Source: an uncultured Thiobacillus sp.
Lineage (GTDB): Bacteria; Pseudomonadota; Gammaproteobacteria; Burkholderiales; Thiobacillaceae
DNA: 64,000 nucleotides
Assembly (NCBI GenBank): GCA_964393825.1
Contig: CAYMUY010000022.1
Location: 4,074-68,073, forward strand
Direction: 5' to 3'
Shown here: in pieces, positions 2-40,915 of the stretch
Layout of the letters: each line of letters begins with the position of its first letter
How positions within the stretch are numbered: position 1 is the stretch's first letter
The notes under the pieces: generated by a model
The model's input: only the letters and a program-made list of their open reading frames with translations
What the model was told of the DNA's origin: nothing
Database searches by the model: none
Made by a program: the position numbers and the translations under genes

Positions 2-970
2 CGCACCCCGGAGATCGGCAATCGTCTGCGCGCCCGGCTCGCGGACGCCCTGCAAGCCTGCCACCTGCGCGGCGAAGCCCACATTACGGCGCGGGAACTG
101 CGCTCGGCGCTGGCCTTCATCTTCTTTGGCGTGCACGACTGCGGCGAACTCCATGCCAACCCCGAGTTGATGCCGCCCCGCTACTGGGATCGCGCCTTCG
201 CCGCCGATGCGCCACAACGCCAGGGTGAACTACTCGCTGAACTCGCCCGGTTCGATCCGGCGCTGGACAGCAACCCGCTGCTGGATCGGCATCTGCTCAA
301 GGACACCCCTCACGGCCCCGACGACATCGTCACCGCGCTGGCATCCGCCCGCCGCCGCGCCTGGTTCGAATGGGACAACGCGCGTTATGCGGTGTTGCAA
401 CTTCCAACCGATGCCTTACCCCTGTTCGGCGGCCGCCACCTCGACCGATTCCGCCGCGTACCGCTGATGAGCGAAGACGAACGCGAAACCCTGTGCCGTG
501 AGCTTTGCCTGGGCATCGCCCGCCTGGAAGACCTGCCCGAGGCCGCTTTCGCCCGCGAGGCCGGACTGCCACTGCGCATCCAGCCGCGCACGCCCACCGA
601 AAGTGCCTTCTGGGTGGTGAAGCCCTGGGGGCGTTTCCGGGTGGAAGCGCCGCTGCCGCGCACCGCCGAAGGGCTGGAAGCCCTGCATACCCACCTGCTG
701 CTGATCTATCGCACGGTAGCCGGCGGAGAGGAACGCCTGCCCATCGGCCTGGAACTGTTTCACCTGCTGCTGGCTTTGAAAGACGGCGCCCAACTGGCCG
801 GCGCCGGCCAGGAAGGGGTGTTCGCCCACCTGGAAATCTTCACCCAGCGACTGGCCCAGGAAGATGCCCGCGAGCTGCACGGCTGGCACCCGGGCGATGA
901 AGCCAGCGTGTTCCGGGTGCGGGTCGAGGCGCGAGAGGGACGGCAGATATTGGTGCGGGAGGCGGCATGA
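2..970 (+). CDS. 3' part (323 codons) of a larger gene entering from upstream of the window. It is the first visible gene of a putative defence operon and is DptF-like by position only.
   Basis: The frame is open from nt 2 with no stop; track ORF 131..970 starts at an internal GTG. Stop TGA 968-970 overlaps the next ATG (ATGA). No nameable motif in the visible part. Coding is likely; the product call is weak. Confidence 0.5.
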   Translation, partial: RTPEIGNRLRARLADALQACHLRGEAHITARELRSALAFIFFGVHDCGELHANPELMPPRYWDRAFAADAPQRQGELLAELARFDPALDSNPLLDRHLLKDTPHGPDDIVTALASARRRAWFEWDNARYAVLQLPTDALPLFGGRHLDRFRRVPLMSEDERETLCRELCLGIARLEDLPEAAFAREAGLPLRIQPRTPTESAFWVVKPWGRFRVEAPLPRTAEGLEALHTHLLLIYRTVAGGEERLPIGLELFHLLLALKDGAQLAGAGQEGVFAHLEIFTQRLAQEDARELHGWHPGDEASVFRVRVEAREGRQILVREAA

Positions 971-2739
971 ATACGAAAACCATCGTCGAGAACGTCCTGA
1001 CCCCGGCGCGGGCCAAGGAGTTGTGGACGGCCAACTATTTCACCGCGCTGCCATTTACCCCGCAGCATTTTGAGGTCGGCAGCCTCTTGCCGGCCATGAT
1101 CTACATGGCGCGCTGGGGCCACCGGCGCGGCAAAGGGCATTTCATCGAGGCCTTCGGCCGCCCAGATGCACAGGGTCGGGTTCAGCCACCCCGGCTGGTC
1201 GATGTGGCCAATGGTTTGCTCAACCGCGCAGGCGCTGATTTCGCCGGTTTCGCGGACGACCACGGCCCGGCGATGCTGGCCGACCTGCTGCTCACCTATT
1301 GCCTGGAAAACAAGGAGCATGAACTGGGCCACGAGGTGGTGGTGCAACGAGTGTTCCCGACTCATTACTTCGCGAGCTGGCTGGACTTGCCGAAAAGTGT
1401 TGGTGACTTGCGCGGTGTCCCCGAGTTATTGACCGCACTGCTGGCCTGGCAGGACAAGGGCGGCACCTTGGCTCAGCGCGCGAGCCACAGCTTTCCGGTG
1501 GGCAGTGATTTTTCGGACAACCCCTTGCTGGCCTTGTTCGGCCGCCATGTGGAGATCGACGGCCCCGCCGCCAACCTCGCCTCAGATCGTTTCATGGAAC
1601 GAACCGCCGACGACCTGGGGGTGGACGAATTGCTGGCGGTGCGATTGGCACAGGTCTGTGGCCATGCACCGGGCCGGGCTGCCGGTGCGGCGGCGGACAT
1701 CCCCAACCGCTGGCCCATCGCCAAAAGCGCCGCAAAATACCTGCGTGGCGATCTATCAACCTTCATCGAAGTCTACGGCGCCACTCTGCCACGCCAGGCG
1801 TTTCTACCGATGCTGGAAGCGGGGATCGGCCTGGGCATGGTCAATGTGTTGTTCTCGACCACGGTTTGCCTGTCCGCATGGGAAAACACTGGCCGCGTTC
1901 CCGAGGAACAAGTGCCGATGCCCTTGTTCGTGGACTGCTCACATGGCCTCGATACCAAGCTGCGCAACGTCTCGGAAGCGGCGATGAGCGAGGCGCTCGC
2001 CCGTTATGAACGTCTGCCGGTGCTGATGATGCTGGCGCGGGTGTTGGATGACCGGGTCAGCCACCACCCCAAGTTGAAGAACGATCTGCCGCCTCGGCAG
2101 CCCGACGCGACCGGTTGGCTCAATCTGCTCGGAAAGATATACCGGGAACAGCACGCCCGGTCGGACTCCATCCTGGAACGTCTGGAAGAGGATTGCGGAA
2201 GCCTGGCGGATCAACTGGAAAAGGCGGAGGAGGCGCCGGAAGTGGTTCGGGCCCTATGCAACGAGCGGATCAATTCGGGATTGCGGATGGCTGAGGCACT
2301 GGTGGAACTAAGTGGTGTTGAGCAACAGGGGCGACAATTCATGAAAGCAATGGATAGCAGCCTCATGCCCAACCGCCCCAACGGCCTCGCCTTCAAACGC
2401 CGCGTCTCCCGCAGCGAAGCCGGCACCAAGAAGGCGATCGACCTGCGTTCCATCGTCCTCTCCCACGCCCTATTGGATTTCCTGGTGCACCGCCACCTGC
2501 GCCGCGACGGCGAAGGCAAGGCCGCGCGGCCGCTCACCCTGCGCAAGTTTCTCGACATTCTGCGCGACCACTACGGGCTGTATGTGGACCGTGAACCACC
2601 GGGTATGTCCGTTCCACAAGACCTGCTGCGCGCCAACAAGGCCTGGCTGGAACGCCGCTTGCGCGACCTGGGCCTGCTGGTGGGGGTGAACGATGCGGAG
2701 TCGATGAAGCAGTTGCGGGCGCGGTTTGTTGTAGCATGA
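967..2739 (+). CDS. 590-aa protein of unknown function, second gene of the putative defence operon (DptG-like by position only)
   Basis: Long ORF whose ATG 967 overlaps the upstream stop. Mostly helical-looking, with no P-loop seen. An HELGH string lies at nt 1318-1332 and may be chance. Coding is likely; the product call is weak. Confidence 0.5.
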   Translation: MNTKTIVENVLTPARAKELWTANYFTALPFTPQHFEVGSLLPAMIYMARWGHRRGKGHFIEAFGRPDAQGRVQPPRLVDVANGLLNRAGADFAGFADDHGPAMLADLLLTYCLENKEHELGHEVVVQRVFPTHYFASWLDLPKSVGDLRGVPELLTALLAWQDKGGTLAQRASHSFPVGSDFSDNPLLALFGRHVEIDGPAANLASDRFMERTADDLGVDELLAVRLAQVCGHAPGRAAGAAADIPNRWPIAKSAAKYLRGDLSTFIEVYGATLPRQAFLPMLEAGIGLGMVNVLFSTTVCLSAWENTGRVPEEQVPMPLFVDCSHGLDTKLRNVSEAAMSEALARYERLPVLMMLARVLDDRVSHHPKLKNDLPPRQPDATGWLNLLGKIYREQHARSDSILERLEEDCGSLADQLEKAEEAPEVVRALCNERINSGLRMAEALVELSGVEQQGRQFMKAMDSSLMPNRPNGLAFKRRVSRSEAGTKKAIDLRSIVLSHALLDFLVHRHLRRDGEGKAARPLTLRKFLDILRDHYGLYVDREPPGMSVPQDLLRANKAWLERRLRDLGLLVGVNDAESMKQLRARFVVA

Positions 2740-2772
2740 TTGGCTTCAATCGTATTTAAACAAGCTACATCC

Positions 2773-3381
2773 ATGCTCGCATCCCTCCTCTTCGGTGACT
2801 ACCGCCAGAAAGTGTTGGCTTTCCTGCTGTTGCATCCCGAACAGCACTACCACGTGCGCGAAATCGCCCGTCTGACCGGCACCTCCGCCGGCACCTTGCA
2901 CAAGGAACTGGCGCGGCTCGCCCAGGCGGGCGTGCTGATCCGTGAAGCGGTTGGCAATCAGGTGCGCTACGGCGCCAATCGGCAGTGCCCGATCTTTCCG
3001 GAACTGGCGGGAATACTGCGCAAGACGGCGGGGCTCGCGGATGTTTTGAAGGAAGCCTTGGCCGGTTTGCGCGAGCGTATTGCGCTAGCGCTGGTGTTCG
3101 GTTCGGTGGCGCGCGGCGAGGAAGGGCCGCGCAGCGATGTGGATGTCCTGCTGGTGGGCGAAATCGGTTTCGCCGAAGCGGTCACGGCACTGCATGAGGC
3201 GCAGGCGCGCATCGGCCGGGAGATCAACCCGGTGGTGCTGTCCCCCGCCGAGTTTCAGGAAAAAATAAACGCGGGCGATGCCTTCCTCGCCGAGGTGTTG
3301 CACAACGACAAACTGTATCTGATGGGAGACGAAGATGACCTTGGAAAACTTGCTGGCGATCCGGCGATTGGTGCGGCATGA
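2773..3381 (+). CDS. winged-HTH + minimal nucleotidyltransferase (MNT-type) fusion protein
   Basis: N-terminal ArsR/MarR-like wHTH (YHVREIARLTGTSAGTLHKELARLAQAGVL), then the NTase signature FGSVARGEEGPRSDVDVLLVG (nt 3097-3159). ATG 2773 is preferred over the track TTG 2740. Confidence 0.75.
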   Translation: MLASLLFGDYRQKVLAFLLLHPEQHYHVREIARLTGTSAGTLHKELARLAQAGVLIREAVGNQVRYGANRQCPIFPELAGILRKTAGLADVLKEALAGLRERIALALVFGSVARGEEGPRSDVDVLLVGEIGFAEAVTALHEAQARIGREINPVVLSPAEFQEKINAGDAFLAEVLHNDKLYLMGDEDDLGKLAGDPAIGAA

Positions 3382-3760
3382 GGCCGGGCGCGCCGCCATC
3401 CTGAAACTGCTGGCGGCGGCGGAACGCAATCTGGCCGACGCCAGGGTCACCACGATCAGCGCGGAAAACCGCTTCGACGCCGCTTACAAGGCCATCCTGC
3501 AATGCGCGATGGCCGCGCTCTGGGCCAAGGGCTATCGCACTTCCACCAGCGAGCCGGGCCACCACCAGACCGCCATCCAGACGTTGCCGCTGACCCTGGC
3601 GGTTGATAGTGCCACCGTCATCGTTCTCGACGCGCTGCGCAAACAGCGCAATCTCAACGACTACACCGGCGACGGGGTCAGCGAGGCGCTGCTCGCCGAG
3701 TGCGTCGCCCAGTCGGAAGCCTTGTTGCGCCATACCAGCGCCATCCTCGGAGTGTCCTGA
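3335..3760 (+). CDS. small all-helical HEPN-like partner of the nucleotidyltransferase
   Basis: 141 aa, with GGAG 6 nt upstream of ATG 3335. Overlaps the NTase gene by 47 nt, the usual MNT/HEPN pairing. A canonical Rx4-6H motif is not seen (RKQRNLNDY instead), so the family call is tentative. Confidence 0.5.
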   Translation: MTLENLLAIRRLVRHEAGRAAILKLLAAAERNLADARVTTISAENRFDAAYKAILQCAMAALWAKGYRTSTSEPGHHQTAIQTLPLTLAVDSATVIVLDALRKQRNLNDYTGDGVSEALLAECVAQSEALLRHTSAILGVS

Positions 3761-3761
3761 A

Positions 3762-6700
3762 ATGCCCATGACCGAAAACACCGCGACTATCCTGGCGCTT
3801 GCCTTGGGCGAATTGCTGGGCCCGTCCCTCTCCGGCAGCATGGCGTTCATCCGTTGCCTGCCGGGCGAAGTGGCGCGGGAACTGGCGCTGGACAGCCGCT
3901 TCTCGGTGCCGGGCTGGCGCATCGCCGTGGTCGGTCAGACGGTAGGTGAGACCGCGCGCGCCATTACCGCGGACCAGGCGGTGGAGTGGCGCGAGGACAA
4001 GGCGGAAGCGGTGCTCCTGCTCGTGGATACCGTTGAAGCCGGTGCCGGCATGGACGGCATTTACAGCGCTGCGAGAGAGATTTCCGAGGCGGAGCTTTTC
4101 GCCAAGGCCAAGGCGCTGGCGCGCGAGAAACTGGCGCATGGCGGCAAGGGCTTCGCCGACAAGGCCTTGTCCAAAGCGCGCCGGCTGGCGCGCAACAAGG
4201 CCTTGTCGCCCTGGCGCGAGTTCGCCTATCTCTGCCGTGCCGCATATACCGACAGCCTGGAAGGCCTCGGCGCGGCCTTGCCGGAAATCGGTCTGTGGCC
4301 TGTGGCGGTGGAGGACAAGCCGGATGACGGCGATCTGGAAAAATCCGCCCGGCTGGTGGAACGCCTGCTGGCGGGCAACCGGCAATCGGCTGAAACAAGG
4401 GTGGCGGGCCTGCAACTACCGGTGGCCGAGGCGGCCTTGGCCAATGAACTGGCTGGATTTCTGCGGGAGGCCGACAACCTTTCCCGTTTGGATGCGCTGG
4501 CGCGACTGGAAGAACGAGACACCCTGTGGCTGAACAAGGTGCATCCCGGCCTGTTCGATAGCCAGACCTTGCAGTCGATACGCTGGGTGAATTGGCGTGG
4601 CAAAAGCGGCAAACCCGCTGCTTGGTCGGGCATGACGGTGGATACCGATGACCGTCTTGTTTTCAAGCTGGCGTTGACCGACAACCCGCAGCAGCGGGTG
4701 CGTCTGGAAGTGCGCTGGGAGACGGACCCCGCGACGCTGGCGAAAGACGCGGTGGATTACACGGTGGAAATCCGCGCCGGTGGCGACGCGCTGGCGGAGA
4801 AGGCCATCAGCCATGTCGCGAAAGGGCCGCAGAAATGCGTGTTCACCCAGGAGGATTTCGGCGAACTGGAGGAAAGCGCGCGCTTCGAGGCGGAAGTGGT
4901 GATCCGCGCGTTGACGGCGGAATCGCTGCTGGAGAGCGATGACCGGGAAAGCCCGTTTCGCGCCTTGAGCGAGGATTTCATCCTCTGCTTCGGCGAGAGC
5001 GACAAGCCCGCGAAAACCAGCGCCGGCAGTGTCTACCCCACCCTGGCACTGGCCGTCATCCAGGTGGCGAAGGAGCGGGAGGACTTCGACCGGCTGGCCG
5101 ACAACCCTGGTGATAGACAAGCCTTCAGCCGGGACGCCAAGGGCTATATCGCCTGCCGCGTGGACGGCAAGGCTGCACGGGTGCTGTGCCCGAATCTGTT
5201 GCTGGAATTGGCGATGGATTGGGCTGTACACGGCGGCGAACCGGGCCGCTGGCGGCTCAAGGTGCGGGCGGACGGCACGCCCGACGGCAAGCCTGAGTTT
5301 GTTTCTGTGCCGCCGACCAGCGATGAGTCGGGTAGGCGCTTCGCCCAGGTTTCCAGGGACTTTTTCCGTTGGCTGGCCACTTCCAGCCAGGGCCCATTGG
5401 CTGTGCTCTACACCGAGCGCAAGGTCATCAACGATTATGTCAACGCCGCCACCGCCTGGTGGGACACCGCGCCCGCCCGCGCCACCCTGATCCATACCCT
5501 GGAAGTGGTGGGGGTGAGCGGCCAGCGCATCGGCCTCATCGTGTTGCCGACCCATCCCTTGCGGGTGGCCTGGCAACAGGGCTTCGACATGCTGGTCTGG
5601 CGACATTGCTACGAGGAAGGGGCGCCGCCAACCAAGGTGGCCAAGCTGCTCGGCACGCTGACCGGCGCGCATTACCCGGCCATGTTGCCCGGCTTCGAGC
5701 AGGGCGAGGCCTTCGTGTTCGCGGACAGCCTGGGCTTTCATACCGTGGCGATGACCGCGACCGATGACGCTGAACCCAAGGCCACCGTGGCCTTGCTCTC
5801 CCGCTTGCTGGCGGATGGCGATGCCAAGGGGGAGGAATTGATGGCGCCGTCCGTGGGCAAGAGCGCTTCAGAACTGCTGGGCGAGGAAGTTGCCCGCTAT
5901 CTGGTCTTGCACCCGGAAACCCGGCGCGTGCATGTGCATGCCTTGCGTCCCGGCGACGCCATGCCGGCCGTGCGTGCCTTGGGCTGCGCCTTGCGCGATG
6001 TGGAAGCGGCGGAGTTGGACGAGGAAGGCGAGGTTCGGGATGGCGATGCGAGAGACGCCAATGCCAAGCGCGCATTCGTGCTGGACCTTTACCCGGCGAA
6101 GGGCCGCAAGAGCATGGTGGGGCGCTTCCTGTCGGCTACCACCGAGCGTCAGCGCAGTGGCGCCGGGGTGGTGCCGGAGGAGGACCGTTGGCTCCTGGCA
6201 AGCGCTTCCCGCCCCGGTGGCGTCAGCCTGCCGCGTCTGGCCTGGGCGCGGCGCGAGCGTGAAACGCCGGCCACCCCGGCGCATCTAGCCCTGGCCTTCG
6301 ATATTTTTTCCACGCGCCTGGAGTGCGTACCCAAGGCCAGTGTCCCCGATGCGGCACTGGAAGTGCATGGATTGGCGCTGACGCCAGAGCGTTGCTTCGA
6401 GGCGGGGCCGCTGCCACGCTGGATATCGTCGATTCCGACCGCGCCGGAAGGCGAGAAGCATCCCGTCGGGCGCGGTTTTTCCGAGCGCCTGGTCAAGGCG
6501 CATTCCGCCCTGTTGCGCTGTGTCGCCAAGCGTATGGGGGCGGGTGAGAACGACTGGCCGGTGTTGATCACGGAAGTCTCGGCCGACCAGGGTGAAATGC
6601 TGGCGAGCCTGCATCGTCTGTGCGATTGGGTGGTGACGGTAGACCGCCATGCCGGCGTCGAGTATTTCGATTCCCCACGCGATCTGCCGAAACTGTATGA

Positions 6701-8741
6701 GGCCTATCTGATCGACTGCGTGCCGGAACGAGACGACCTGGGCTTTCTGCAACTTATCACCTCAACCAGTTCTCTGGACGAAATCGTGCGCTTGCTGGAT
6801 GCCGCGCTGGGAGAAATGGGTTTGTCGGCCAGCCCGCGCAACTGCACATTCCTGCTGGATGCGCTGAAGGCGGTGAGCGGCCGTCTCGCCTTGCGTCTGA
6901 CCCAGTCCGGCACGGTGGCGCAGGAGATGGTGGCGCTGGCGCTAACGCAAAGCCACTGCGCCACGGAAAGTGAAGCAGGCGCGCCCTGGCTTTCCCTGGC
7001 CGAGGGTTTTTTCGTGCCCCTCGACGATGTGCCGGAACTGTTCCGCGCGGTGGGCGAGAGCAAGGACAAGGATGCAAGCGGGCAACGCGCCGATTTGTTG
7101 TATGTGACGGCGGCTAAACGCGGTGGCTTGAAGTTCAGCTTCGTGGAAGTGAAATTCCGCCGTTACCTCAAGACCGCGCGGGCGCCGGACTTGCTGGACA
7201 TGGTTTCCAGCCAACTCGAAGCCTCCTGCCAACGCTGGGAAAAGCTGTTCGGGCCGGAGACCGCGCCATTGGAAAAAACCGTGCAGCGCGCCCGTCTGGC
7301 GCGGGTGCTGCGCTTCTACGCGCGCAAGGGGCTGCGCCACACGCTGACCGAGGAGGCGTTCAAGCTTATCGAGGAGCAATTGGAGAAATTGGCGCGAGGT
7401 GGGGCCAGTTATGCGTTGCCGACTTTGCTGGAACAGGAAAGGGCAAAAATCGGTTTTGTGTTCTGTCCGGAGTATGGCGGCGTGAAGCCGGTCGAAATCG
7501 GCGCGGACATCTGGCTGTTTGGGCCGGTACGATTGCCCGAGGCCAGACGCGGCGCGCTGGCCCCTCCCGCCTCCGTGCCCGCCGATGCGGGCGGGGCCGG
7601 CTCGCCGCCGCGCGCGGGTGAGAAAATCGCCGAGTCAAACCAGCCGGGGCTGGATCCGCACGCGCCGCCAGAAGCTTCAGGTGAAAGCGCGGACGGTGGG
7701 GCAGGTGCGGCATGTGCGGTCGAACTCCTTCTCGGTCATCGCGAGGGCAACGAGGAACCCGTGCATTGGCGGGTCAGCATCCAGGGTAACCCGCACTTGC
7801 TGATCGTCGGCCTGCCGGGCATGGGCAAAACCACTTGTCTGATCCAGTTGTGCCGGCAACTGATGGCGGCCGGCATCGCGCCCATTGTGTTTTCCTACCA
7901 CGAGGACATCGACGAGAAGCTGGGGGCGCTTTGGGGGGATGCGCTGCGCACCGTGAGTTATGCCGGCCTCGGCTTCAACCCGCTCCAGGTGGAGAGTGAA
8001 GCGCCTCTAGCCTACATGGACAACGTGACCTTGCTGCGCGACAACTTCGCGGCCATTTTTCCCGACCTGGGGGATGTGCAACTGGGGCGGCTGCGCGAGG
8101 CGATCAAACAGAGTTATGCAGACCGGGGCTGGTCGCTGGGCGCGCGAGGCGAAATTCCACCCTTCGCGGCGTTCTACGACTTGCTCAAGGCCGACCCGAA
8201 ACCGGACAAGGGGCTGATGACCCGGCTGGCGGAACTGGCGGATTACGGCCTGTTCGACGCCAACACCGGCGCGCCCAGCCTGCTCGATAGCGCCACGCCT
8301 ACCCTGGTGCAAATCCACAGTTCACAGAACGAAGTACTGCAACGAGCGTTTTCCACCTTCGTGCTGCACAACCTCTATCAGTCCATGTTCCGGCGCGGCA
8401 CGCAAAGCCGCATCACCCACGCCATCATCTTCGACGAGGCGCACCGCGCGGCCCGCTTGAAGCTGATTCCGACGATGGCCAAGGAATGCCGCAAGTACGG
8501 GCTTTCCTTCGTGGTGGCTTCGCAAGAGGCGAAGGATTTCGATTCATCCCTGTTCACTGCCGTGGCCAACTACCTGGCGCTGCGGGTGAATGAATCCGAC
8601 GCCAAGCTGATGGCGAAGATATTCGCGCCCTCGGACAAGGTGACGCTCTATGCGGACCGGATCAAGCAGTTGGCCAAGTTCAAGGCCTGGTTTTATTCGG
8701 AAGGGATGCGGGTGCCTGTTCCTGTGAAGCTAGGTAACTGA
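3762..8741 (+). CDS. giant 1659-aa multidomain protein with a C-terminal HerA/FtsK-type P-loop ATPase; DptH-like architecture
   Basis: ATG 3762 lies 2 nt after the HEPN-like stop, whereas the track start 3603 would overlap that gene. Walker A GLPGMGKT is at nt 7809-7832 and Walker B IIFDEAH at nt 8424-8444, with VVASQEAKDF downstream. A PD-(D/E)xK-like D...EVK lies at nt 7092-7154. A Pro/Ala/Gly-rich linker spans about nt 7540-7720. Confidence 0.6.
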   Translation: MPMTENTATILALALGELLGPSLSGSMAFIRCLPGEVARELALDSRFSVPGWRIAVVGQTVGETARAITADQAVEWREDKAEAVLLLVDTVEAGAGMDGIYSAAREISEAELFAKAKALAREKLAHGGKGFADKALSKARRLARNKALSPWREFAYLCRAAYTDSLEGLGAALPEIGLWPVAVEDKPDDGDLEKSARLVERLLAGNRQSAETRVAGLQLPVAEAALANELAGFLREADNLSRLDALARLEERDTLWLNKVHPGLFDSQTLQSIRWVNWRGKSGKPAAWSGMTVDTDDRLVFKLALTDNPQQRVRLEVRWETDPATLAKDAVDYTVEIRAGGDALAEKAISHVAKGPQKCVFTQEDFGELEESARFEAEVVIRALTAESLLESDDRESPFRALSEDFILCFGESDKPAKTSAGSVYPTLALAVIQVAKEREDFDRLADNPGDRQAFSRDAKGYIACRVDGKAARVLCPNLLLELAMDWAVHGGEPGRWRLKVRADGTPDGKPEFVSVPPTSDESGRRFAQVSRDFFRWLATSSQGPLAVLYTERKVINDYVNAATAWWDTAPARATLIHTLEVVGVSGQRIGLIVLPTHPLRVAWQQGFDMLVWRHCYEEGAPPTKVAKLLGTLTGAHYPAMLPGFEQGEAFVFADSLGFHTVAMTATDDAEPKATVALLSRLLADGDAKGEELMAPSVGKSASELLGEEVARYLVLHPETRRVHVHALRPGDAMPAVRALGCALRDVEAAELDEEGEVRDGDARDANAKRAFVLDLYPAKGRKSMVGRFLSATTERQRSGAGVVPEEDRWLLASASRPGGVSLPRLAWARRERETPATPAHLALAFDIFSTRLECVPKASVPDAALEVHGLALTPERCFEAGPLPRWISSIPTAPEGEKHPVGRGFSERLVKAHSALLRCVAKRMGAGENDWPVLITEVSADQGEMLASLHRLCDWVVTVDRHAGVEYFDSPRDLPKLYEAYLIDCVPERDDLGFLQLITSTSSLDEIVRLLDAALGEMGLSASPRNCTFLLDALKAVSGRLALRLTQSGTVAQEMVALALTQSHCATESEAGAPWLSLAEGFFVPLDDVPELFRAVGESKDKDASGQRADLLYVTAAKRGGLKFSFVEVKFRRYLKTARAPDLLDMVSSQLEASCQRWEKLFGPETAPLEKTVQRARLARVLRFYARKGLRHTLTEEAFKLIEEQLEKLARGGASYALPTLLEQERAKIGFVFCPEYGGVKPVEIGADIWLFGPVRLPEARRGALAPPASVPADAGGAGSPPRAGEKIAESNQPGLDPHAPPEASGESADGGAGAACAVELLLGHREGNEEPVHWRVSIQGNPHLLIVGLPGMGKTTCLIQLCRQLMAAGIAPIVFSYHEDIDEKLGALWGDALRTVSYAGLGFNPLQVESEAPLAYMDNVTLLRDNFAAIFPDLGDVQLGRLREAIKQSYADRGWSLGARGEIPPFAAFYDLLKADPKPDKGLMTRLAELADYGLFDANTGAPSLLDSATPTLVQIHSSQNEVLQRAFSTFVLHNLYQSMFRRGTQSRITHAIIFDEAHRAARLKLIPTMAKECRKYGLSFVVASQEAKDFDSSLFTAVANYLALRVNESDAKLMAKIFAPSDKVTLYADRIKQLAKFKAWFYSEGMRVPVPVKLGN

Positions 8742-8876: not shown

Positions 8877-10058
8877 CTAGAAACTGTCCAGCCCCCGCGC
8901 CAGATCGCTCTTCAGGTCCACCACCGCCTCCAGCCCCACCGCGATGCGGATGAGGCCATCGCCGATGCCGGCGGCCGCGCGTTGTTCCGGGGTGAGGCGG
9001 CTGTGGGTGGTGCTGGCCGGGTGGGTGATGGTGGTGCGGGTGTCGCCGAGATTGGCGGTGATGGACATGACCCGGGTGGCGTCGATCACCTTCCAGGCGG
9101 CTTCCTTGCAGCCGGTGACCTCGAAGGCAACGATGCCGCCGCCCGTCGTCTGCTGGCGCATGGCGAGCGCGTGTTGCGGGTGCGAGGGCAGGCCGGGATA
9201 GAGCACGCGGCTGACCCTGGGCTGCGCTTCCAGCCAGGTCGCCAGTTCCAGGGCGTTTTCCGAATGCGCGCGCATGCGCAGGTTCAGGGTTTCCAGGCCC
9301 TTGAACAGTACCCAGGCGTTGAACGCGGACAGGGTCGGTCCGGCGGTGCGCAGAAAGGTGTAGACGCCTTCCATCAGGTCCTTTTTTCCAAGCACGGCGC
9401 CGCCCAGCACCCTGCCCTGGCCGTCCAGGTATTTGGTGGCGGAGTGGATGACGATATCGGCGCCGAGGTCGAGCGGGCGTTGCAGGATCGGGGTGCAGAA
9501 GCAGTTGTCCACCGCCAGCCAGACGCCGGCGGCATGGGCGATGTCGGCCAGGGCCCGGATGTCGCTGACCTCGGTGAGCGGATTGGAGGGCGATTCGAGG
9601 AAGAACAGGCGGGTATCGGGCCGCGCCGCCGCGCGCCATTCCTCGGGGTCGGTGGGCGAGACGAAGGTCGTCTCGATGCCGAAACGGCCGAGGATGTTGG
9701 TGAACAGCTGCACGGTGGAACCGAAGATGGAACGCGAGGCGACGACATGCTCCCCGGCCTTCATCAGGCCCATCACCGTGGCGAGGATGGCGGCCATGCC
9801 GGAGGCGAAGGCGACGCAGCGCTCGGCGCCCTCGAGGGCGGCCAGGCGTTCCTCGAACATGGTCACGCCGGGGTTGGTGAAGCGGGCATAGATTGGCCCC
9901 GGCTCGGCCCCGGAAAAGCGGGCGGCGGCCTCGGCGGCGCTGCCGAAAACGAAGCTGGAGGTGAGGTACATCGCCTCGGAATGCTCGTTGAACTGGCTGC
10001 GTTGCGTGCCGGCGCGGACGGCCAGGGTTTCCGGCTGGAGAGTGTGATCGTGGGTCAT
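8877..10058 (-). CDS. metZ: O-succinylhomoserine sulfhydrylase (Cys/Met-metabolism PLP enzyme)
   Basis: MTHDHTLQPETLAVRAG start, PLP-lysine region HSATKYLDGQG, and a typical position next to purF. ATG 10058 is chosen over the longer track ORF. Confidence 0.85.
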   Translation of the reverse strand: MTHDHTLQPETLAVRAGTQRSQFNEHSEAMYLTSSFVFGSAAEAAARFSGAEPGPIYARFTNPGVTMFEERLAALEGAERCVAFASGMAAILATVMGLMKAGEHVVASRSIFGSTVQLFTNILGRFGIETTFVSPTDPEEWRAAARPDTRLFFLESPSNPLTEVSDIRALADIAHAAGVWLAVDNCFCTPILQRPLDLGADIVIHSATKYLDGQGRVLGGAVLGKKDLMEGVYTFLRTAGPTLSAFNAWVLFKGLETLNLRMRAHSENALELATWLEAQPRVSRVLYPGLPSHPQHALAMRQQTTGGGIVAFEVTGCKEAAWKVIDATRVMSITANLGDTRTTITHPASTTHSRLTPEQRAAAGIGDGLIRIAVGLEAVVDLKSDLARGLDSF

Positions 10059-33906: not shown

Positions 33907-35940
33907 TTACTCGGGCCAGACCGTGAAAGAGGAGGCCGGAGCGGGAGCGGGGACGGCCTGCTTCTGGGCATTCTTCGGTTGCACGGTGAGCACGCTATCC
34001 AGTTTCAGATCAGGCAGCTTCTCTGGGGAAATGTCCGGCATCAGCCAGCGCTTGGGCGCGGGATAGGCGCCATAGACGTTGCGTATGTATTCGTAACGAC
34101 CTTGTGTCAGATCGGACATCGACTCCGGCGTGCGTACCACGACCGGACGCAGGAACACCATCAGATTGGTCTTGGTGCGCTTGCGGGTTTCACTGCGGAA
34201 CAGAGCCCCCAGCAAGGGGAGGTCACCCAGACCGGGCACCTTGTCGACACTATTCTGGACATCGTCCTGAATCAGTCCACCCAGCACGATGGCTTCACCA
34301 TCTCCGACCAGCACGGTGGTTTCGATGGATCGCTTGTTGGTGATGATGCCTGCGGAGTTGCTGGAATCCCGGACACTGGAGACTTCCTGCAAGATTTGCA
34401 GCTTGATGGTTCCGCCTTCCGAAACCTGCGGCTTCACCTTCAGGGTCAGGCCCACGTCCTTGCGTTCGATGGTCTGGAACGGATTCACCGCCGCCGCGGC
34501 GCCGCCCGCCGACGCTTGCGCATAACTGCCGGTGATGAATGGCACATTCTGGCCAATCACGATTTTCGCTTCTTCGTTATCCAGCGTCAGCAGATTCGGG
34601 GTCGACAATACGTTTGCATCTGAATCGGATTGCAGCGCCCGCGCCAGGGCCGTCATCCCGGTGATGGTCTGGCCGCCAACGGTAATCCGCTGCAACAAGC
34701 CCACGGACAGGCCCGGCGCGGGCAACACGGCGCGGCTGTTCAGACTCAACAGATTCTTCCCGGCGGCGGAAGCGGCGTCGTTGAACACCGAACCGGCAAC
34801 CAGCGCGGTACCGCCGCCCTCCGCGATCGGCGTCATCCACTGCACACCGAGATCCGCCACCTTGTCGCTGGTGACTTCCACGATCAGGGCCTCGATGAAA
34901 ATCTGCGCGCGCTGCGCATCCAGTTTGTCGACCACCGCGCGCAGACTGTTGTAGAGATGATCGGGCGCGCTGATCACCAGGGAATTGCTCGCGGCATCGG
35001 CCAGAATCGTCACGCCGGTACCGCTGCTCGCCGCCGGTGTCGCCGGCGTGGCGCCCGTGGCTGCCGCCGATCCGGCGGCCATCGCGCGCAGGGTCTCCGC
35101 CAGTTTGGTCGCATCGGCATTGCGCAGATGCACCACCTGCAGGTTGCTCATGCCGGCGGAAGGCGTATCGAGTTGCGCCACCATCGCGCGCAGGGTGTCC
35201 AGCTTGCCCTGGTTGTCGGTTCGCACCATCAGGCTGTTGCTGCGGCCATCGGCGGCGATCATCATGGAAGTCCCGGCCGCCGCGCCGGCCGGCTCGGCGA
35301 ACAGGCGGGTCAACTGCTGGGCCAGTTCGATCGCGGAGAGGTGTTGCACCTTGATGATGTTGAATTCGGCGTCGTTCGGCTTGTCGATCGCCTCGATGAT
35401 TTGCGAGATACGCTTGAGGTTATCCGCGTAATCGGTGATCACCAGGGTATTGGAGCCGGGATAGGCCGACACCGCGTTGTTCGGCGCGATCAGCGGCCGC
35501 AGGACGCCCACCAGCTGCACCGCCGTGGCGTACTGCAGGGGATAGACCTGGGTCACCACCTGATCGCCCCCCTTCTTCACCACCTTGCCATAGGTATCGC
35601 TAAAGTGCTGCTTGGCATCCGCCTCCGGCACGATCTTGACCAGATCCTTTCCTTCCACCGCCGTGAAGCCCTGCATGCGCAGCGAGGAAATCAGGATCTG
35701 ATAGGCCAGGTCCGCGCTCACCGGCTTCACCGAGGCGATGCTGATCGTCCCCTTCACGCGCGGGTCGAGCAGGAAGTTCTTGCCGGTGATCTGCCCCATC
35801 GCACGCACCACGGAATCGATCTCCGCGTTGACGAAATTGAGCATCACCGGGCCGGTCGCCGACATTGCTGGCGCCGCCAGGCAGAACAACGAGAGACAGG
35901 CAACTACCATGCCTCGTTTCGATGAGATCCGTCGCGTCAT
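33907..35940 (-). CDS. gspD: type II secretion secretin
   Basis: Signal peptide, N0-N3 domains and a secretin C-domain (VLVGDGEAIVLGGLI...VPGLGDLPLLGALF). Confidence 0.95.
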   Translation of the reverse strand: MTRRISSKRGMVVACLSLFCLAAPAMSATGPVMLNFVNAEIDSVVRAMGQITGKNFLLDPRVKGTISIASVKPVSADLAYQILISSLRMQGFTAVEGKDLVKIVPEADAKQHFSDTYGKVVKKGGDQVVTQVYPLQYATAVQLVGVLRPLIAPNNAVSAYPGSNTLVITDYADNLKRISQIIEAIDKPNDAEFNIIKVQHLSAIELAQQLTRLFAEPAGAAAGTSMMIAADGRSNSLMVRTDNQGKLDTLRAMVAQLDTPSAGMSNLQVVHLRNADATKLAETLRAMAAGSAAATGATPATPAASSGTGVTILADAASNSLVISAPDHLYNSLRAVVDKLDAQRAQIFIEALIVEVTSDKVADLGVQWMTPIAEGGGTALVAGSVFNDAASAAGKNLLSLNSRAVLPAPGLSVGLLQRITVGGQTITGMTALARALQSDSDANVLSTPNLLTLDNEEAKIVIGQNVPFITGSYAQASAGGAAAAVNPFQTIERKDVGLTLKVKPQVSEGGTIKLQILQEVSSVRDSSNSAGIITNKRSIETTVLVGDGEAIVLGGLIQDDVQNSVDKVPGLGDLPLLGALFRSETRKRTKTNLMVFLRPVVVRTPESMSDLTQGRYEYIRNVYGAYPAPKRWLMPDISPEKLPDLKLDSVLTVQPKNAQKQAVPAPAPASSFTVWPE

Positions 35941-36773: not shown

Positions 36774-37095
36774 CTGTTGTAAACGACGGGACGAGTGTTT
36801 CCGGCAACCACCCCCAGCGCCGATCGTCGTCCCATGGCGTCAAGGGTGAAATACGAAAACGCCTGGCAGGTTAACCCAAGAACGTTGCCGCCGAAACCCG
36901 GGTGCGGACGCTCATGGTGGAACCCTCCATAGGGGAAGGTGCACTGACTCGATAGAACGAGTGTGCTATCCAGCATTTATCGGACTGGCGTATGGTTGTA
37001 CCATCCGCAAAAGTCACAGTAACCGACCATCCCGCTGTTCCAGGTGGCGCTTGATGGTTCTGTCCCTTTCCCCACTTTCGACGAAGGAACAATCA

Positions 37096-38895
37096 ATGAA
37101 AACCTCACGTTGGATCATGCTGACCATGCGACTGGGGCTGGCACTGCTCATCGCCGGGCTGGCGGGTTGTGGCGGTGGTGGTGGTGGTGGCTCAACGCCC
37201 GCCACGGTCGTCAGTGCGCCCGAGCAGGTCACCGTCGATGGCGGCCGCGCCCGGATCACCGTGACCTGGTCGGGCGTCAGTGGCGCCACCAGCTACAACA
37301 TCTATTATTCCGCCACCACGCCTGTGAACCCGGCCACCGCGAGCAAGGTCGCCGGCGTCGGCAGCCCGCAGACCATCCGCGACCTGACCAACGGCACCCG
37401 CTATTACGCGGTGGTCACCGCCGTCGGCGCGGGTGGTGAAAGTGCGGTGTCCAAGGAGATATCGGCGGTTGCCGCCGACCCTGCCCCCCCCATGGCTCCC
37501 CTCAACATTCATGCCGATGCAGGCAACGGCCAGATGACCGTGAGCTGGGATGCGGCCGATGGCGCCACTTCCTACAACCTCTACTACGGCACCAGCGCCG
37601 CCGTCACCAAGACCAGCGGCACGAAAATCACTGGCGTCACCAGCCCGCTCGTCGTGTCACCGCTCACCAGCGGCACCCGCTACTACGCCATCGTCACCGC
37701 GGTGAACGCGGTTGGAGAAAGCGCGGATTCGTTCCATACCAGCGCCACCCCGTCCGCCTCGCCGCCGCCGGTCGCGCCCACCAACCTGCAAGCGGCACTC
37801 TCCCCGACCGACCCGACCAAGGTCGTGCTGACCTGGACCGCCGCCGCCGGCGCCACCAGTTACAACCTTTATTACGGCAGTTCCTGGGGCGTCACCAAGA
37901 CCACGGGCACGGCGGTGAACAACATCACCAGCCCGCATACGATGTCCACGCCGCCGCTGACCCTGAACAAAGCGACCTTCTTTGTGGTGACGGCGAGCAA
38001 TGCGTCAGGCCAGAGCAGCGAATCCAGCCAGGTGTCCGCCACCCCGCGTGCCAGCGCACTCGTCGCCGCCAATGCCCGCATGGTCGGCATCCCGGCCGGC
38101 AGTTTCCTGTTCGGCGACAGCAACGATGGCATCGCTTATGCGCTGCCGGTCAAGTCCATCAATGTCAGCGCGTTTCGCATCGATCGTTACGAGACCACCT
38201 ACAGCCTGTGGAAGACAGTCTACGACTGGGCCGTCCTGAACGGCTACGCCTTCGACAACGCCGGCCAGAACGGCTCGGAAGTCACCGGCAGCGACATGCC
38301 GGTGACCCGCGTGAGCTGGTATGACGTCGTCAAATGGCTCAATGCGCGCTCGGAAATGGAAGGGCTCGCACCGGCCTACTACACCGATGCCGGACACACC
38401 ACGGTCTATCGCAGCGGCCGGGTGGACGTGCAGAACACCATGGTCGACTGGACCGGAACAGGTTATCGGCTGCCGACCGAAGCCGAGTGGGAAAAAGCCG
38501 CGCGCGGCGGCCTGGCGGCCAAGCGCTACCCCTGGGGCGACGACCCGGCGGACCCGACGCTGGTTTCGAGCGCGCAAGCCAACTACACCGCCGGCCGGAC
38601 CATCAGCGTCGGCTTGCTGCCGCCCAACGGCTACGGCCTCTATGACATGGCCGGGAACGTCTGGGAATGGACCTGGAACTGGTGGGTCGCCGACTACAAC
38701 GACGCCAGCGTCACTGCCAGCGACCCGCGGGGGCCAAACGCACCGCTGGACATGCTGAACAACTACGTCCGTGTCAGACGCGGCGGCGGCATCGCCTATG
38801 GCCCGTATTTCTTGCGCAACGCCGAACGTGTTGGTCGGGCGGCAACATATACTGCACCCTACTTCGGTTTCCGCGCCGTACGCAGCGGCTTATGA
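37096..38895 (+). CDS. lipoprotein with three FN3-like repeats and a C-terminal FGE/SUMF1 (formylglycine-generating-enzyme-like) domain
   Basis: Lipobox LIAGLAGC followed by Gly7. Three repeats of about 90 aa each carry GATSYN[IL]YY (about nt 37216-38040). The FGE-type motifs are RVSWYDVVKWLNA, GYRLPTEAEWEKAARGG, GLYDMAGNVWEWT and RVRRGG. ATG 37096 verified. Confidence 0.8.
   Translation: MKTSRWIMLTMRLGLALLIAGLAGCGGGGGGGSTPATVVSAPEQVTVDGGRARITVTWSGVSGATSYNIYYSATTPVNPATASKVAGVGSPQTIRDLTNGTRYYAVVTAVGAGGESAVSKEISAVAADPAPPMAPLNIHADAGNGQMTVSWDAADGATSYNLYYGTSAAVTKTSGTKITGVTSPLVVSPLTSGTRYYAIVTAVNAVGESADSFHTSATPSASPPPVAPTNLQAALSPTDPTKVVLTWTAAAGATSYNLYYGSSWGVTKTTGTAVNNITSPHTMSTPPLTLNKATFFVVTASNASGQSSESSQVSATPRASALVAANARMVGIPAGSFLFGDSNDGIAYALPVKSINVSAFRIDRYETTYSLWKTVYDWAVLNGYAFDNAGQNGSEVTGSDMPVTRVSWYDVVKWLNARSEMEGLAPAYYTDAGHTTVYRSGRVDVQNTMVDWTGTGYRLPTEAEWEKAARGGLAAKRYPWGDDPADPTLVSSAQANYTAGRTISVGLLPPNGYGLYDMAGNVWEWTWNWWVADYNDASVTASDPRGPNAPLDMLNNYVRVRRGGGIAYGPYFLRNAERVGRAATYTAPYFGFRAVRSGL
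37174..37188 (+). repeat. (GGT)5 in-frame trinucleotide tract encoding the poly-Gly linker
   Basis: ggc ggt ggt ggt ggt ggt ggc, read directly and codon-aligned, immediately after the lipobox Cys codon (37168-37170). Confidence 0.9.
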
Positions 38896-38998
38896 ATTCA
38901 GGAAATGCCTTTTGGCAGGGCGTGGCAACGTGCATTTTCGACCTGCGTTGCTACATTGAGTCTATGGGGACATTCCCATCTTTTGATTGGAGATAGCC

Positions 38999-40915
38999 AT
39001 GAAACGGAAATGGTGGCAAAGCATCCTGGCCTTCCTGGCCTTGATGATGTTGGCAACCGCGCCAGTTAGCGCGGTGACGGATGGGGAGATCGCCTCACTG
39101 ATGGCGGGTGGCCAGAAATACCTGCTGGATAGTTTCGTTGTGAAACCAAGTGACTCAACCATGGGTTACTGGACGTCCTCGGGCGGTGGCAACCCATCCC
39201 AACCGGATACCGCCGCTGCGGTCGCCGCACTGATCGAAACCGGCAAATACAGTGACCCGGCCTACGCTGCCATCATCGACAAGGCGGTCAAATACCTGCT
39301 GAGCAATGTCCAGTCCAATGGTGGCATCTACGCGAGCAGCTATGAGGCCACCTATCAGACGGGCTTGAGCCTGGTCGCGTTGAGCCTGTATGGGCATCAG
39401 ACCACGCAGAACGCCGCGTTCGGCACGGTAATCCAGAATGCGCTGAATTACTTCAGCAACAACCAGAGCACGGATGGTGGCTGGACCTACACGCCCAGTT
39501 CCTCCTCCACTTCCAGCGACATGTCCAACACGCAGTTCGCGGTGATGGGCCTGTACTATGGCTCCAGCTACCTGAACATTCCGATCAACGCCGATACGGC
39601 GGGCACCTGGGCCAACAAGCTCTACAACGCCATCACCTTTGATGACGCGACCCATACGCCCTATCAGTATGCGGACGGCCACTGCGGCTACTCGCACGGC
39701 GTGAACTACGTCGGTGAATACACCAACGAGACCATGACCGGCGCCTGCCTCTGGAGTCTGGCCATGATCGGCAAGGGCGGCAGCGCGGCAGCCCAGAAAG
39801 CCATCGCCTGGTTCGCCAACAACTATCGCTGGACGCTGAACCAGCGCGACTACTACTTCGTCTATGCCATGTCGAAAGCCCTGGCCGGTACCGTGGGCGC
39901 CAACAACTCGATCGGCACGGCGCCGAATACCCACGACTGGCTTAGCGACCTCAAGCAGACCCTGTTCGACCAAAAGGTCGCGGGCGCGGCTGGCACGAAT
40001 CACTTCTACTGGACGGACCAGAACTGGTTGTCTTCGTATCCTCCGCTGACGGTGTCGTTCAACCTGATGGCCCTGGTGTTCGCCGACCCGAATACGGCAA
40101 GTCCCTCGAAGCTGTTGCCTGAAGAACCGGGCACCGACGTCCCTGCGCTCAACCAGGGCTTGGTCCGGCTCGAAACGACGGGCGGCGTCACCATCTCGGC
40201 ACCGGATCGCGGCAATATCGCGGCGGGTACGAAGGATACCGGCGTTGAACTCCCGGTCGGCTCGTTCGACTTCACCCTCAATGGCCTGACCACTGCGACC
40301 ACGGTATTGCGGATCACCCCGCCCGCGGGCTCGCTCGACAAGACCAACCCGGCTGGCTTCCTCAACGCCGACGGCACCATCAAGGCCGGCCTGACCTGGT
40401 TCAAACTGGTGGGCGGCGCCTGGAAAGGCCTGCCGAGCGTGCCGATCTCGCTGGGCCCGGTGGGTGGTCCCTACACCTACATCGAAGTGACCCTGACCGA
40501 CAACGGCCCGGAAGACACCAATCCGGCAGTCGGTGTGATCACTGACCCGGGTGCGCCTGGCGTCGGCTATACCGCTCCGACCGGCACGAGTACAGGTGCG
40601 GGTGGCGGCAGCTGCTTCATCGCCACCGCCGCCTACGGCAGCTACATGGCCCCGGATGTGATGGTGCTGCGTCAGTTCCGCGATCAATACCTGCTGACCA
40701 ACGGCTTCGGCCGGATGCTGGTAGAAACCTATTATGCGGTTTCGCCTCCCATCGCCCACTTCATCGCCCAGAATGAAGCCCTGCGCAGCGCCACCCGCGC
40801 GGCTTTGGCGCCGATCGTCTTCACGGTGAAGTATCCGTGGGCTTCGCTGGCCATCACCTTGCTGGCCGCTCTCGCCGGGCTGTTCCTGGTACGCCGCCGC
40901 AGCGCGATGCTCTGA
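38999..40915 (+). CDS. secreted prenyltransferase/squalene-cyclase-repeat (alpha-alpha toroid) protein with a [11 protein letters not shown]-terminal module and TM anchor
   Basis: Signal peptide [25 protein letters not shown]. QxxxGGW-type repeats ([21 protein letters not shown]). C-terminal module from nt 40613: [28 protein letters not shown]..., then a hydrophobic helix and RRRS tail. Confidence 0.7.

Follow-up and report, generated by a model that had tools for sequence, protein, structure and literature searches.

Organisation of the locus

The 64,000-nucleotide (nt) stretch of DNA analysed here, referred to below as the window, comes from an uncultured Thiobacillus sp. (GenBank assembly GCA_964393825.1, contig CAYMUY010000022.1), has a G+C content of about 65% and opens with a run of five genes, designated A to E, which are the subject of this work. 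A, B and E form a conserved triad that probably represents a restriction-like defence module of the DndFGH/SspFGH/MAD6-7-8 superfamily, and C and D make up a toxin-antitoxin (TA)-like cassette inserted between B and E (Table 1). For comparison, one genome per species was scanned; 309 loci with a relative of E were found, and 80 of them were fetched (numbered from L001 onwards).

An earlier note, made from the letters of this DNA alone, had described five co-oriented, tightly coupled genes ending convergently at metZ. This was borne out: five plus-strand open reading frames (ORFs) were confirmed, and all junctions were read directly from the sequence. The stop codon of A and the start codon of B share the letters ATGA (967-970), the stop codon of B (2737-2739) is followed by a 33-nt gap before the ATG of C (2773), D starts (3335) before the end of C (3381), giving a 47-nt overlap, and a single nucleotide separates the stop codon of D (3758-3760) from the ATG of E (3762). 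All five are real genes, as hundreds of full-length homologues were found for each. Because the homologues of E are 1644-1662 amino acids (aa) long and cover 100% of the query, the start at 3762 is favoured over a longer ORF with a TTG start at 3603.

The ORF that the note had taken as the first gene (2-970) is present, although it is no more than the final 322 codons of a gene for a 1303-aa protein, cut by the start of the window. Full-length A was recovered from L001, a JGI contig found by exact-protein look-up of B (A, L001:1133-5044). This contig carries the same operon, with the products of A-E 100% identical at the protein level, and nt 1 of the window corresponds to its nt 4075. The note had also proposed looking upstream of the window for dndABCDE or sspABCD; L001 instead shows the rest of A and then a gene for an ECF/CbiO-type ABC ATPase, which marks the upstream boundary. 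On the other side, metZ is a housekeeping flank that lies outside the system and forms its downstream boundary; it runs towards E, the stop codons lying 135 nt apart, and is followed by purF. Since the ABC ATPase gene stands on one side and metZ on the other, the island consists of exactly five genes between housekeeping genes.

Table 1. Features of the five-gene locus in the window and of TA-type insertions at related loci
Feature	Position	Strand	Evidence or remark
Gene A, 3' end (aa 982-1303)	2..970	+	gene cut by window edge
Gene B, 590 aa, MAD7/SspG/DndG-superfamily subunit	967..2739	+	NCBIfam MAD7 3e-29, 102 bits (cut-off 410)
Gene C, 202 aa, winged helix-turn-helix and minimal nucleotidyltransferase (MNT-type, antitoxin-like), PDC-M05A	2773..3381	+	PADLOC 4e-77
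Gene D, 141 aa, PDC-M05B/UPF0332-type HEPN-like, toxin-like partner of C	3335..3760	+	PADLOC 2e-64
Gene E, 1659 aa, DndH/SspH/MAD8-like giant effector	3762..8741	+	BLASTP/hhalign to MAD8, PADLOC SspH/DndH
E, PD-(D/E)xK nuclease core, aa 1082-1135	7005..7166	+	conserved D1088/D1089, D1111, E1129-V-K1131
E, HerA/FtsK-type P-loop ATPase, aa 1320-1659	7719..8738	+	Walker A/B, PDB match 7es4_A
metZ (O-succinylhomoserine sulfhydrylase)	8877..10058	-	NCBIfam NF006003, 711 bits (cut-off 522)
TA-type insertion, uncultured Gammaproteobacteria: small ORF and PIN protein	L016:7494-8176		A/B junction; PIN match borderline (23.4 bits)
TA-type insertion, Thiodictyon: UPF0175 and DUF3368	L021:7368-8145		A/B junction
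TA-type insertion, Lamprocystis: Unstab_antitox and DUF5615	L022:6755-8072		A/B junction

Products of genes A, B and E

The earlier note had recognised no motif in the two large proteins other than E; A is a NERD-kinase-DndF-like fusion, and B resembles MAD7 and SspG. The identity of A emerged only after recovery of the full gene, because the fragment in the window, in which nothing but part of the lid and the C-terminal region is left, gave no Pfam match. The complete protein consists of a NERD nuclease, a degenerate kinase-like domain, an intact Ser/Thr kinase, a P-loop core of the DndF/SspF type and a C-terminal region. It matched the Pfam models NERD (4e-10, 40.6 bits against a cut-off of 22.1) and Pkinase (2e-14), the NCBIfam MAD6 model (1e-55, with 189 bits below the cut-off of 460) and the PADLOC SspF model (4e-17, aa 774-1026 aligned with positions 36-274 of 600). 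The catalytic residues of the NERD nuclease (D57...E70-V-K72, of the PD-(D/E)xK type) are conserved. The first kinase-like region (approximately aa 190-440) shows little conservation and reads HRH and DFS where an active kinase has HRD and DFG. In the second, the G-loop (471-476), K498, H596-G-D598, N603 and D615 are conserved, and this kinase is predicted from its motifs to be catalytically intact. The P-loop core carries a Walker A motif (G797-NAGDGK803-T), N839-L-D841 and LAIN880SG, all conserved in 50 family members, with N880 at the position where Walker B usually has Asp. At the level of motifs, this core appears to have the features by which DndF is recognised, namely, a canonical Walker A in a derived P-loop kinase, Asn where Walker B has Asp and, after strand 2, an acidic residue (PMC10853773).

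In some members of the E family, at about 40% identity, the F-like protein is unfused and carries neither NERD nor kinase (L052:6390-8210, 606 aa; L070:6267-8156, 629 aa); these two proteins matched SspF at 1e-13 to 1e-17 and DndF at 1e-6. A shorter F-like version of 429 aa, possibly truncated, occurs in L049 (3421-4710), and a 706-aa ORF precedes the F-like gene of L070.

B gave no match in Pfam, and all of its homologues listed carry the precomputed Pfam family PF26611 (MAD7). Among the PADLOC models, mad7 matched at 3e-9 and SspG at 0.008, the latter over the C-terminal 60 aa only (SspG positions 448-511 of 519). The PADLOC mad7 model also matches the true DptG of Escherichia coli at 4.5e-140, and true MAD7 matches SspG at 2e-8. 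Because the mad7 hidden Markov model (HMM) scores genuine DptG in this way, a mad7 match alone cannot separate MADS (see below) from DndFGH. The family is small: among 1.84 billion, a profile of B retrieved only 418 cluster representatives at E <= 1e-3. Wherever the DNA of a locus extended far enough, B was located directly between A and E, the C-D insertion aside, and its product presumably binds DNA or serves as an adaptor.

The product of E begins with alpha/beta, helical, beta-rich and Rossmann-like (methylase-like) regions, followed by a PD-(D/E)xK nuclease, a low-complexity linker and a HerA/FtsK ATPase. Both catalytic motifs named in the earlier note hold in the family. D1088, D1089, D1111 and E1129 of the nuclease are invariant and K1131 is nearly so (at least 90%) in 31 E sequences down to 40% identity, and a family of 66 was also checked. 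In the ATPase, Walker A (GLPGMGKT, 1350-1357, with G1350-T1357 invariant), Walker B (FDEAH, 1557-1561), R1577 and Q1588 are conserved. When compared with PDB sequences, the ATPase matched the ATPase domain of DptH best (7es4_A, E = 2.3e-16), followed by HerA proteins. With PADLOC models, E matched SspH at 4.5e-7 (aa 944-1183; SspH positions 985-1207 of 1766) and DndH at 2e-20 (aa 1319-1643). The PADLOC run, which the earlier note had proposed, gave partial matches to SspF, SspH and DndH and matches to mad7 and, weakly, SspG for the triad, and strong matches to PDC-M05A and PDC-M05B for C and D.

An AlphaFold2 model of aa 1-1200 of E (predicted local distance difference test (pLDDT) 85.6, predicted template modelling score 0.75) contains an alpha/beta domain (1-125), a helical domain (129-250), an all-beta domain (272-410), an alpha+beta domain (423-515) and a Rossmann-like domain (522-1070) with a beta insert (814-890); nuclease strands follow at 1082-1086, 1112-1117 and 1123-1128. 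Ahead of the nuclease there are thus some 1050 residues, divided into alpha/beta, helical, beta-sandwich-like and methylase-like domains. The methylase motif [SDN]PP[FYW] was found nowhere in E, and the Rossmann-like region may tentatively be regarded as methylase-like but devoid of a catalytic motif. The order of domains in the model is the one given for DndH (PMC10853773), which is consistent with the DndH plan without proving it. In that work, the N-terminal part of H is made up of an inactive SWI2/SNF2 C-domain, a helix-turn-helix, two beta-sandwiches, a target recognition domain and an inactive methylase in which a further target recognition domain is nested.

In a Thiodictyon metagenome-assembled genome (MAG), a decayed second copy of E lies directly downstream of the intact gene (L021:15864-18210, matching aa 772-841, 976-1159, 1303-1371 and 1516-1659). 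In a gammaproteobacterial MAG, approximately 1.4 kb interrupts the E homologue near codon 150 (L082:10453-11862). Several homologues of E bear the label 'DptH' at JGI despite missing TIGR03237.

Relationship to characterised systems

The closest characterised relative of the triad is, by sequence comparison, MAD6-7-8 of the Methylation Associated Defence System (MADS) of Pseudomonas aeruginosa SMC4386, in which mad6, mad7 and mad8 are each needed for phage defence (bioRxiv 10.1101/2023.03.30.534895). MADS was not among the candidates of the earlier note. A bona fide eight-gene operon on a Piscinibacter gummiphilus plasmid (NZ_CP136338.1) was used as the reference; it encodes a helix-turn-helix (HTH) protein, an N6-methylase, an AAA ATPase and two other proteins, and then MAD6 (1391 aa), MAD7 (557 aa) and MAD8 (1858 aa), which as positive controls scored 760, 658 and 231 bits, above the NCBIfam cut-offs. 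The three genes stand in the same order here and are of similar size (1303, 590 and 1659 aa). A aligns over its full length with MAD6, including NERD, both kinase-like domains and the C-terminal half (BLASTP, 25% identity, aa 9-1273, E = 7e-62; hhalign, 100%), B with the C-terminal 300 aa of MAD7 (BLASTP, E = 2e-9; hhalign, 98.5%, aa 250-590) and E with MAD8, including the nuclease region (BLASTP, 26% identity, aa 468-1250, E = 1e-31; hhalign, 99.9%). The triad differs from MADS in the low identity (about 25%), with every NCBIfam MADS cut-off missed, in the absence beside it of the five upstream genes, in the TA-like pair embedded in this lineage and in the DptH-like ATPase of E. By BLASTP, the latter is nearer to DptH (6e-11) than to MAD8 (0.037), which fits the repeated 'capture' of HerA/FtsK domains described in PMC10853773. 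The NCBIfam models of MAD6 (612 positions) and MAD8 (200 positions) span only the N-terminal parts of the 1391- and 1858-aa proteins.

In its overall plan, the triad resembles DndFGH sensu lato as redefined by Rakesh, Aravind and Krishnan (NAR 2024, PMC10853773). DndF variants fused to NERD and to an inactive and an active S/T/Y kinase have already been described (PMC10853773, PMC12839542), and the same works argue that DndFGH is a standalone counter-invader system, often decoupled from dndABCDE. The features in common are the F-G-H order and the standalone layout without linked modification genes, an F core with intact Walker A and Asn in Walker B preceded by the NERD-pseudokinase-kinase module, and an H protein of about 1650 aa in which a nuclease is followed by a HerA/FtsK ATPase with a Q sensor (Q1588). 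The lack of a methylase catalytic motif in the putative methylase-like region and, in some members, an unfused F of about 600 aa are likewise shared. The resemblance to the proteins of a true DndBCD-DptFGH locus (E. coli H240) is, by contrast, limited: A is similar to DptF only in the P-loop (hhalign probability 91.7%, E = 8e-7; A aa 769-926, DptF residues 37-176), E to DptH only in the ATPase (98.3%), and no similarity to DptG was seen (see below). The N-terminus of E did not match DptH by hhalign, in which the single-sequence template limits sensitivity.

SspFGH of Vibrio anguillarum FF-93 (PMC8092258) shares the three-gene order and the FtsK-like C-terminus of H, and, besides the mad models, only the PADLOC models SspF, SspG and SspH matched all three proteins (4e-17, 0.008 and 4.5e-7). 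These matches to A, B and E are weak and partial, SspF has neither NERD nor kinase, and SspFGH adjoins and depends on sspBCD phosphorothioation, whereas no ssp genes are found here. PglW of type 2 BREX/Pgl resembles A in the N-terminal NERD-pseudokinase-kinase part (NCBIfam 1e-12, PADLOC 8e-15), and the same tripartite module is known from PglW and a subset of DndF (PMC12839542). The C-terminal half of PglW, however, is composed of a triple winged HTH (wHTH) and an inactive STAND domain rather than the DndF-type P-loop core of A, and its partners PglX, PglY and PglZ are absent here.

Distribution and genomic context of the triad

The 80 loci come from Beta-, Gamma-, Alpha- and Deltaproteobacteria, Planctomycetota, Acidobacteriota, Verrucomicrobiota, Chloroflexota, Bacteroidota, Cyanobacteria, Nitrospirota, Spirochaetia and several other taxa. 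According to tblastn against the 80 loci, A, B and E are adjacent and stand in this order, down to 40% identity, in essentially all loci for which the DNA suffices. Because this order is kept across the loci while C-D are limited to one clade, the A-B-E triad is regarded as the conserved functional unit.

The site of the triad varies even among species of Accumulibacter, with xerC upstream in L004-L006 and the ABC ATPase gene and metZ at the flanks here. In Rhizobium phaseoli, where the triad is plasmid-borne, its neighbours are a SIR2 gene, IS66 and IS21 elements and a type ISP restriction-modification (R-M) gene; PGAP names the three genes 'NERD domain-containing protein kinase family protein', 'hypothetical protein' and 'ATP-binding protein'. 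Carriers in culture include Paraburkholderia phenazinium LMG 2247 (L026), R. phaseoli R630 (plasmid pRphaR630c, L084) and Sphingobium sp. AN558 (L056). Clustering of the flanking ORFs revealed no further conserved neighbour family. Among the 110 flank ORFs closest to the triad, PADLOC picked out scattered type I restriction endonuclease and R-M genes, Dsr2, SNF2-type helicases and methylases, and neither analysis revealed a constant defence or modification partner.

With DndB, DndC, DndD and MAD1-5 as tblastn queries against the window and 84 loci, only generic N6-methylase similarity was found, in 4 loci; the methylases of these loci resemble type I HsdM of neighbouring systems and are often on the opposite strand. 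No linked methylase, dnd or ssp gene was thus detected in the window or as a conserved partner in the 80 loci, the adjacency of ssp genes being judged from the lack of any conserved flank family and not from SspB, SspC or SspD queries.

The C-D pair and other TA-type insertions

The product of C contains a nucleotidyltransferase (NTase) domain (Pfam NTP_transf_2, 31.6 bits, cut-off 21) with a GS...DVD motif visible in its translation (FGSVARGE...SDVDVLLV), and its MarR_2 match (26.8 bits) is just below the cut-off of 27. D gave no Pfam HEPN match and no PDB sequence match. Its conserved motifs are GHHQ (75-78) and RKQRNLNDY (102-110, no His), and the canonical Rx4-6H is not at the usual position. 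D is labelled HEPN-like because of the PDC-M05B match (2e-64), the name 'UPF0332 family' that JGI gives to some of its 4692 homologues and the description of PDC-M05 as an NTase and a HEPN-domain protein with a TA-like architecture, whose antiviral role is unconfirmed (PMC12988326). As in the type VII MNT/HEPN system MntA/HepT, the two genes form an overlapping cassette with the nucleotidyltransferase first, and C carries the GS...DxD motif of minimal nucleotidyltransferases together with an NTP_transf_2 match over the cut-off. C differs from MntA in its N-terminal winged HTH and misses the NCBIfam MntA equivalog cut-off (8.5e-7, 28.8 bits against 60), and D differs from HepT in lacking a Pfam HEPN match.

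By tblastn, C-D are present in only 11 of the 80 loci (L001-L006, L008-L010, L012 and L013), all of them from an Accumulibacter/Rhodocyclaceae/Sulfuritalea/Hydrogenophilus clade in which E is at least 71% identical and the pair itself is kept at 66-89% identity. Because C-D are confined to one clade while A-B-E are conserved throughout, the pair is interpreted as a lineage-specific insertion into the spacer between B and E. C-D as a core component of the system were rejected, as about 70 of the 80 loci do without them. In three loci of the Rhodocyclaceae/Hydrogenophilus group, an extra ORF of approximately 130-180 aa, Cys/Lys-rich (CxxC...CxxC) and with no Pfam match, lies between B and the NTase gene (L012:8448-8948, L013:1112-1660 and L010:6895-7275).

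Three further lineages carry TA-type cassettes at the A/B junction (Table 1), and, with C-D counted, at least four unrelated TA families have entered the operon independently. DUF3368 ORFs were also found just downstream of E in L080 (15054-15578) and others. TA-type cassettes stand at this downstream position in L080, L019 and L055.

Proposed function and alternative explanations

Taken together, the locus is likely to be an F-G-H-type restriction-like defence module of the DndFGH/SspFGH/MAD6-7-8 superfamily with an inserted TA-like cassette. The proposal of the earlier note, a DptFGH variant with an embedded TA-like pair, stands at the level of the superfamily and as regards the insertion of the pair, and falls in that the triad is not DptFGH proper. 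Its second proposal, an uncharacterised HerA-ATPase-based system, is correct in so far as this clade has no curated name, while the architecture had already been described (PMC10853773). The triad is an unnamed, uncharacterised clade of a known superfamily, free of a modification module, whose architecture was catalogued in silico in 2024; what sets it apart is that no modification genes are linked to it and that a TA pair is embedded in the operon.

The following mechanism might be proposed. A, B and E would assemble into one complex. B, together with the N-terminal part of E, would recognise DNA; the HerA/FtsK ring would capture or translocate this DNA and pass it to the nuclease of E, to be nicked or cut. 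A would act as a sensor or switch, its P-loop binding a nucleotide or, together with the C-terminal region, sensing an infection cue; its kinase might gate or amplify the response by phosphorylation, and its NERD nuclease might be an additional or reserve effector. Since a modification partner is missing, self is probably told from non-self by infection-dependent activation or by the state of the incoming DNA, and not by a cognate epigenetic mark. C-D may be an independently mobile MNT/HEPN-type cassette that landed in the B/E spacer in the Accumulibacter/Rhodocyclaceae lineage and is co-transcribed owing to its position; its most likely role is a separate one, in addiction or abortive infection.

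Several points weigh against this interpretation. The defence function and the mechanism of the triad would follow from work on DndFGH, SspFGH and MADS, by analogy. The NCBIfam MADS cut-offs were missed, with 189 of 460 bits for MAD6 (NF047741), 102 of 410 for MAD7 (NF047733) and no match to MAD8 (NF047742). In the profile-HMM search that the earlier note had proposed, A, B and E had no match at E <= 0.01 to TIGR03238 (DptF), TIGR03236 (DptG) or TIGR03237 (DptH), and only the C-terminal ATPase of E resembles DptH. Hhalign of the B family revealed no similarity to E. coli DptG, the single-sequence template limiting sensitivity. The AlphaFold2 model of B, built with 31 homologues of 57-88% identity, is poor (pLDDT 56), and the three winged-HTH domains given for G (PMC10853773) would be putative here. 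A Foldseek search with the E (1-1200) model against the PDB found nothing at E <= 1e-3; sub-threshold matches (probabilities 0.8-0.99, E > 1e-3) were to S-adenosylmethionine (SAM)-methyltransferases and GH2/chaperone beta-sandwiches and were not placed on individual domains. The helicase-like, beta-sandwich, target recognition domain and inactive-methylase parts of E are thus putative, suggested by weak matches and the order of secondary structure. A single transcript for the operon is suggested by gene spacing alone; a scan gave no promoter-like site and no more terminator-like sites than expected by chance. The main gap is that avoidance of self-damage by a triad without a partner is unexplained, as SspFGH and DndFGH damage host DNA when the modification partner is missing (PMC8092258). 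A 64-kb window also leaves room for an unlinked methylase elsewhere in the genome, which is possible.

A rival view is that the triad is a reduced MADS or another modification-dependent F-G-H system, with modification genes elsewhere in the genome that provide epigenetic self-protection. MAD6/7/8 are the nearest characterised homologues, only MAD6-8 are mandatory in the detection model of the MADS authors, whose operons vary in completeness (bioRxiv 10.1101/2023.03.30.534895), the harm done to host DNA by unrestrained SspFGH implies that some protection is needed (PMC8092258), and N6-methylase genes do occur near 4 related loci. Nevertheless, we regard this explanation as unlikely, since no MAD1-5, DndB/C/D or conserved methylase lies within 4-10 kb in about 76 of the 80 loci or in the 64-kb window, and the few methylases present look like HsdM of the type I systems beside them. 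The identity to MAD6-8 is only about 25% with all curated cut-offs missed, and F-G-H modules are commonly decoupled from modification genes (PMC10853773).

Alternatively, all five genes might form one obligate system, with the NTase/HEPN-like pair built in as regulator or effector, for example, a HEPN RNase as executioner and the NTase as signal generator. The tight coupling (the 47-nt C/D overlap and the 1-nt D/E gap) and the retention of the pair throughout the Accumulibacter/Rhodocyclaceae/Hydrogenophilus clade speak for this, the TA-type cassettes in the operons of three further lineages hint at a recurrent functional association, and HEPN and PIN genes border Dnd systems as possible backup effectors (PMC10853773). 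It is nevertheless quite improbable, since most of the loci have A-B-E without C-D, the D family is about ten times larger (4692 against approximately 400-450 for B and E), indicating that D occurs mostly elsewhere, and PADLOC models PDC-M05 as a self-standing two-gene candidate. The cassettes of the other lineages belong to unrelated TA families at a different junction, which fits opportunistic insertion.

A canonical phosphorothioate-dependent DptFGH or SspFGH module with dnd or ssp genes outside the window, to which the 'DptH' labels, the DptH-like ATPase of E and the weak SspF, SspG and SspH matches might point, is highly improbable: true E. coli H240 DptF, DptG and DptH score 454, 309 and 1208 bits on TIGR03238, TIGR03236 and TIGR03237, to which A, B and E have no match, and similarity to dndB/C/D, which are adjacent in the E. 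coli locus, was found neither in the window nor in the 84 loci. Canonical DptFGH identity was accordingly rejected, there being no TIGR0323x match and no dnd genes near the triad.

Returning to the triad as an F-G-H-type module with an inserted TA-like cassette, a bolder version might be put forward, which we hold to be rather doubtful. The triad would be a self-sufficient, modification-independent immune machine in which A licenses E on infection cues, and it would represent an ancestral or minimal core that was later coupled to marking in MADS, Dnd and Ssp. The operon junctions would be a recurrent landing site for TA cassettes, selected as guards or backup effectors that fire when a phage shuts off expression of the operon.

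MAD6-8, DndFGH and SspFGH are still mechanistically obscure, and this clade may be a naturally 'stripped' F-G-H machine, present in at least 309 species-level genomes of many phyla, and a possible missing link. If the triad does defend alone, an F-G-H machine can separate self from non-self without a cognate mark, and the kinase-fused F subunit would be an obvious candidate for the switch. The embedded C-D pair and the independent TA insertions amount to a natural experiment, if a small one, in the way defence operons are colonised, and perhaps strengthened, by TA cassettes. For annotation, the triad genes are now 'hypothetical' or 'ATP-binding protein' and sometimes, wrongly, 'DptH'.

Other features of the window

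No tRNA gene was found in the window, and the rest of it is also of housekeeping character, with folC, leuC and the genes of FimV, GspD and a GGDEF-EAL protein. Two adjacent large ORFs on the plus strand (53303-56686 and 56780-59317), of 1127 and 845 aa, had no NCBIfam match at E <= 1e-20, and both of these putative ORFs are overlapped by a 1638-aa ORF on the opposite strand. Two further ORFs of about 640 aa each (36961-40915), one with a PorK/GldK-like C-terminal region and the other with a CFI-box-CTERM domain, are located near the gene of the type II secretion secretin GspD (33907-35940, minus strand).

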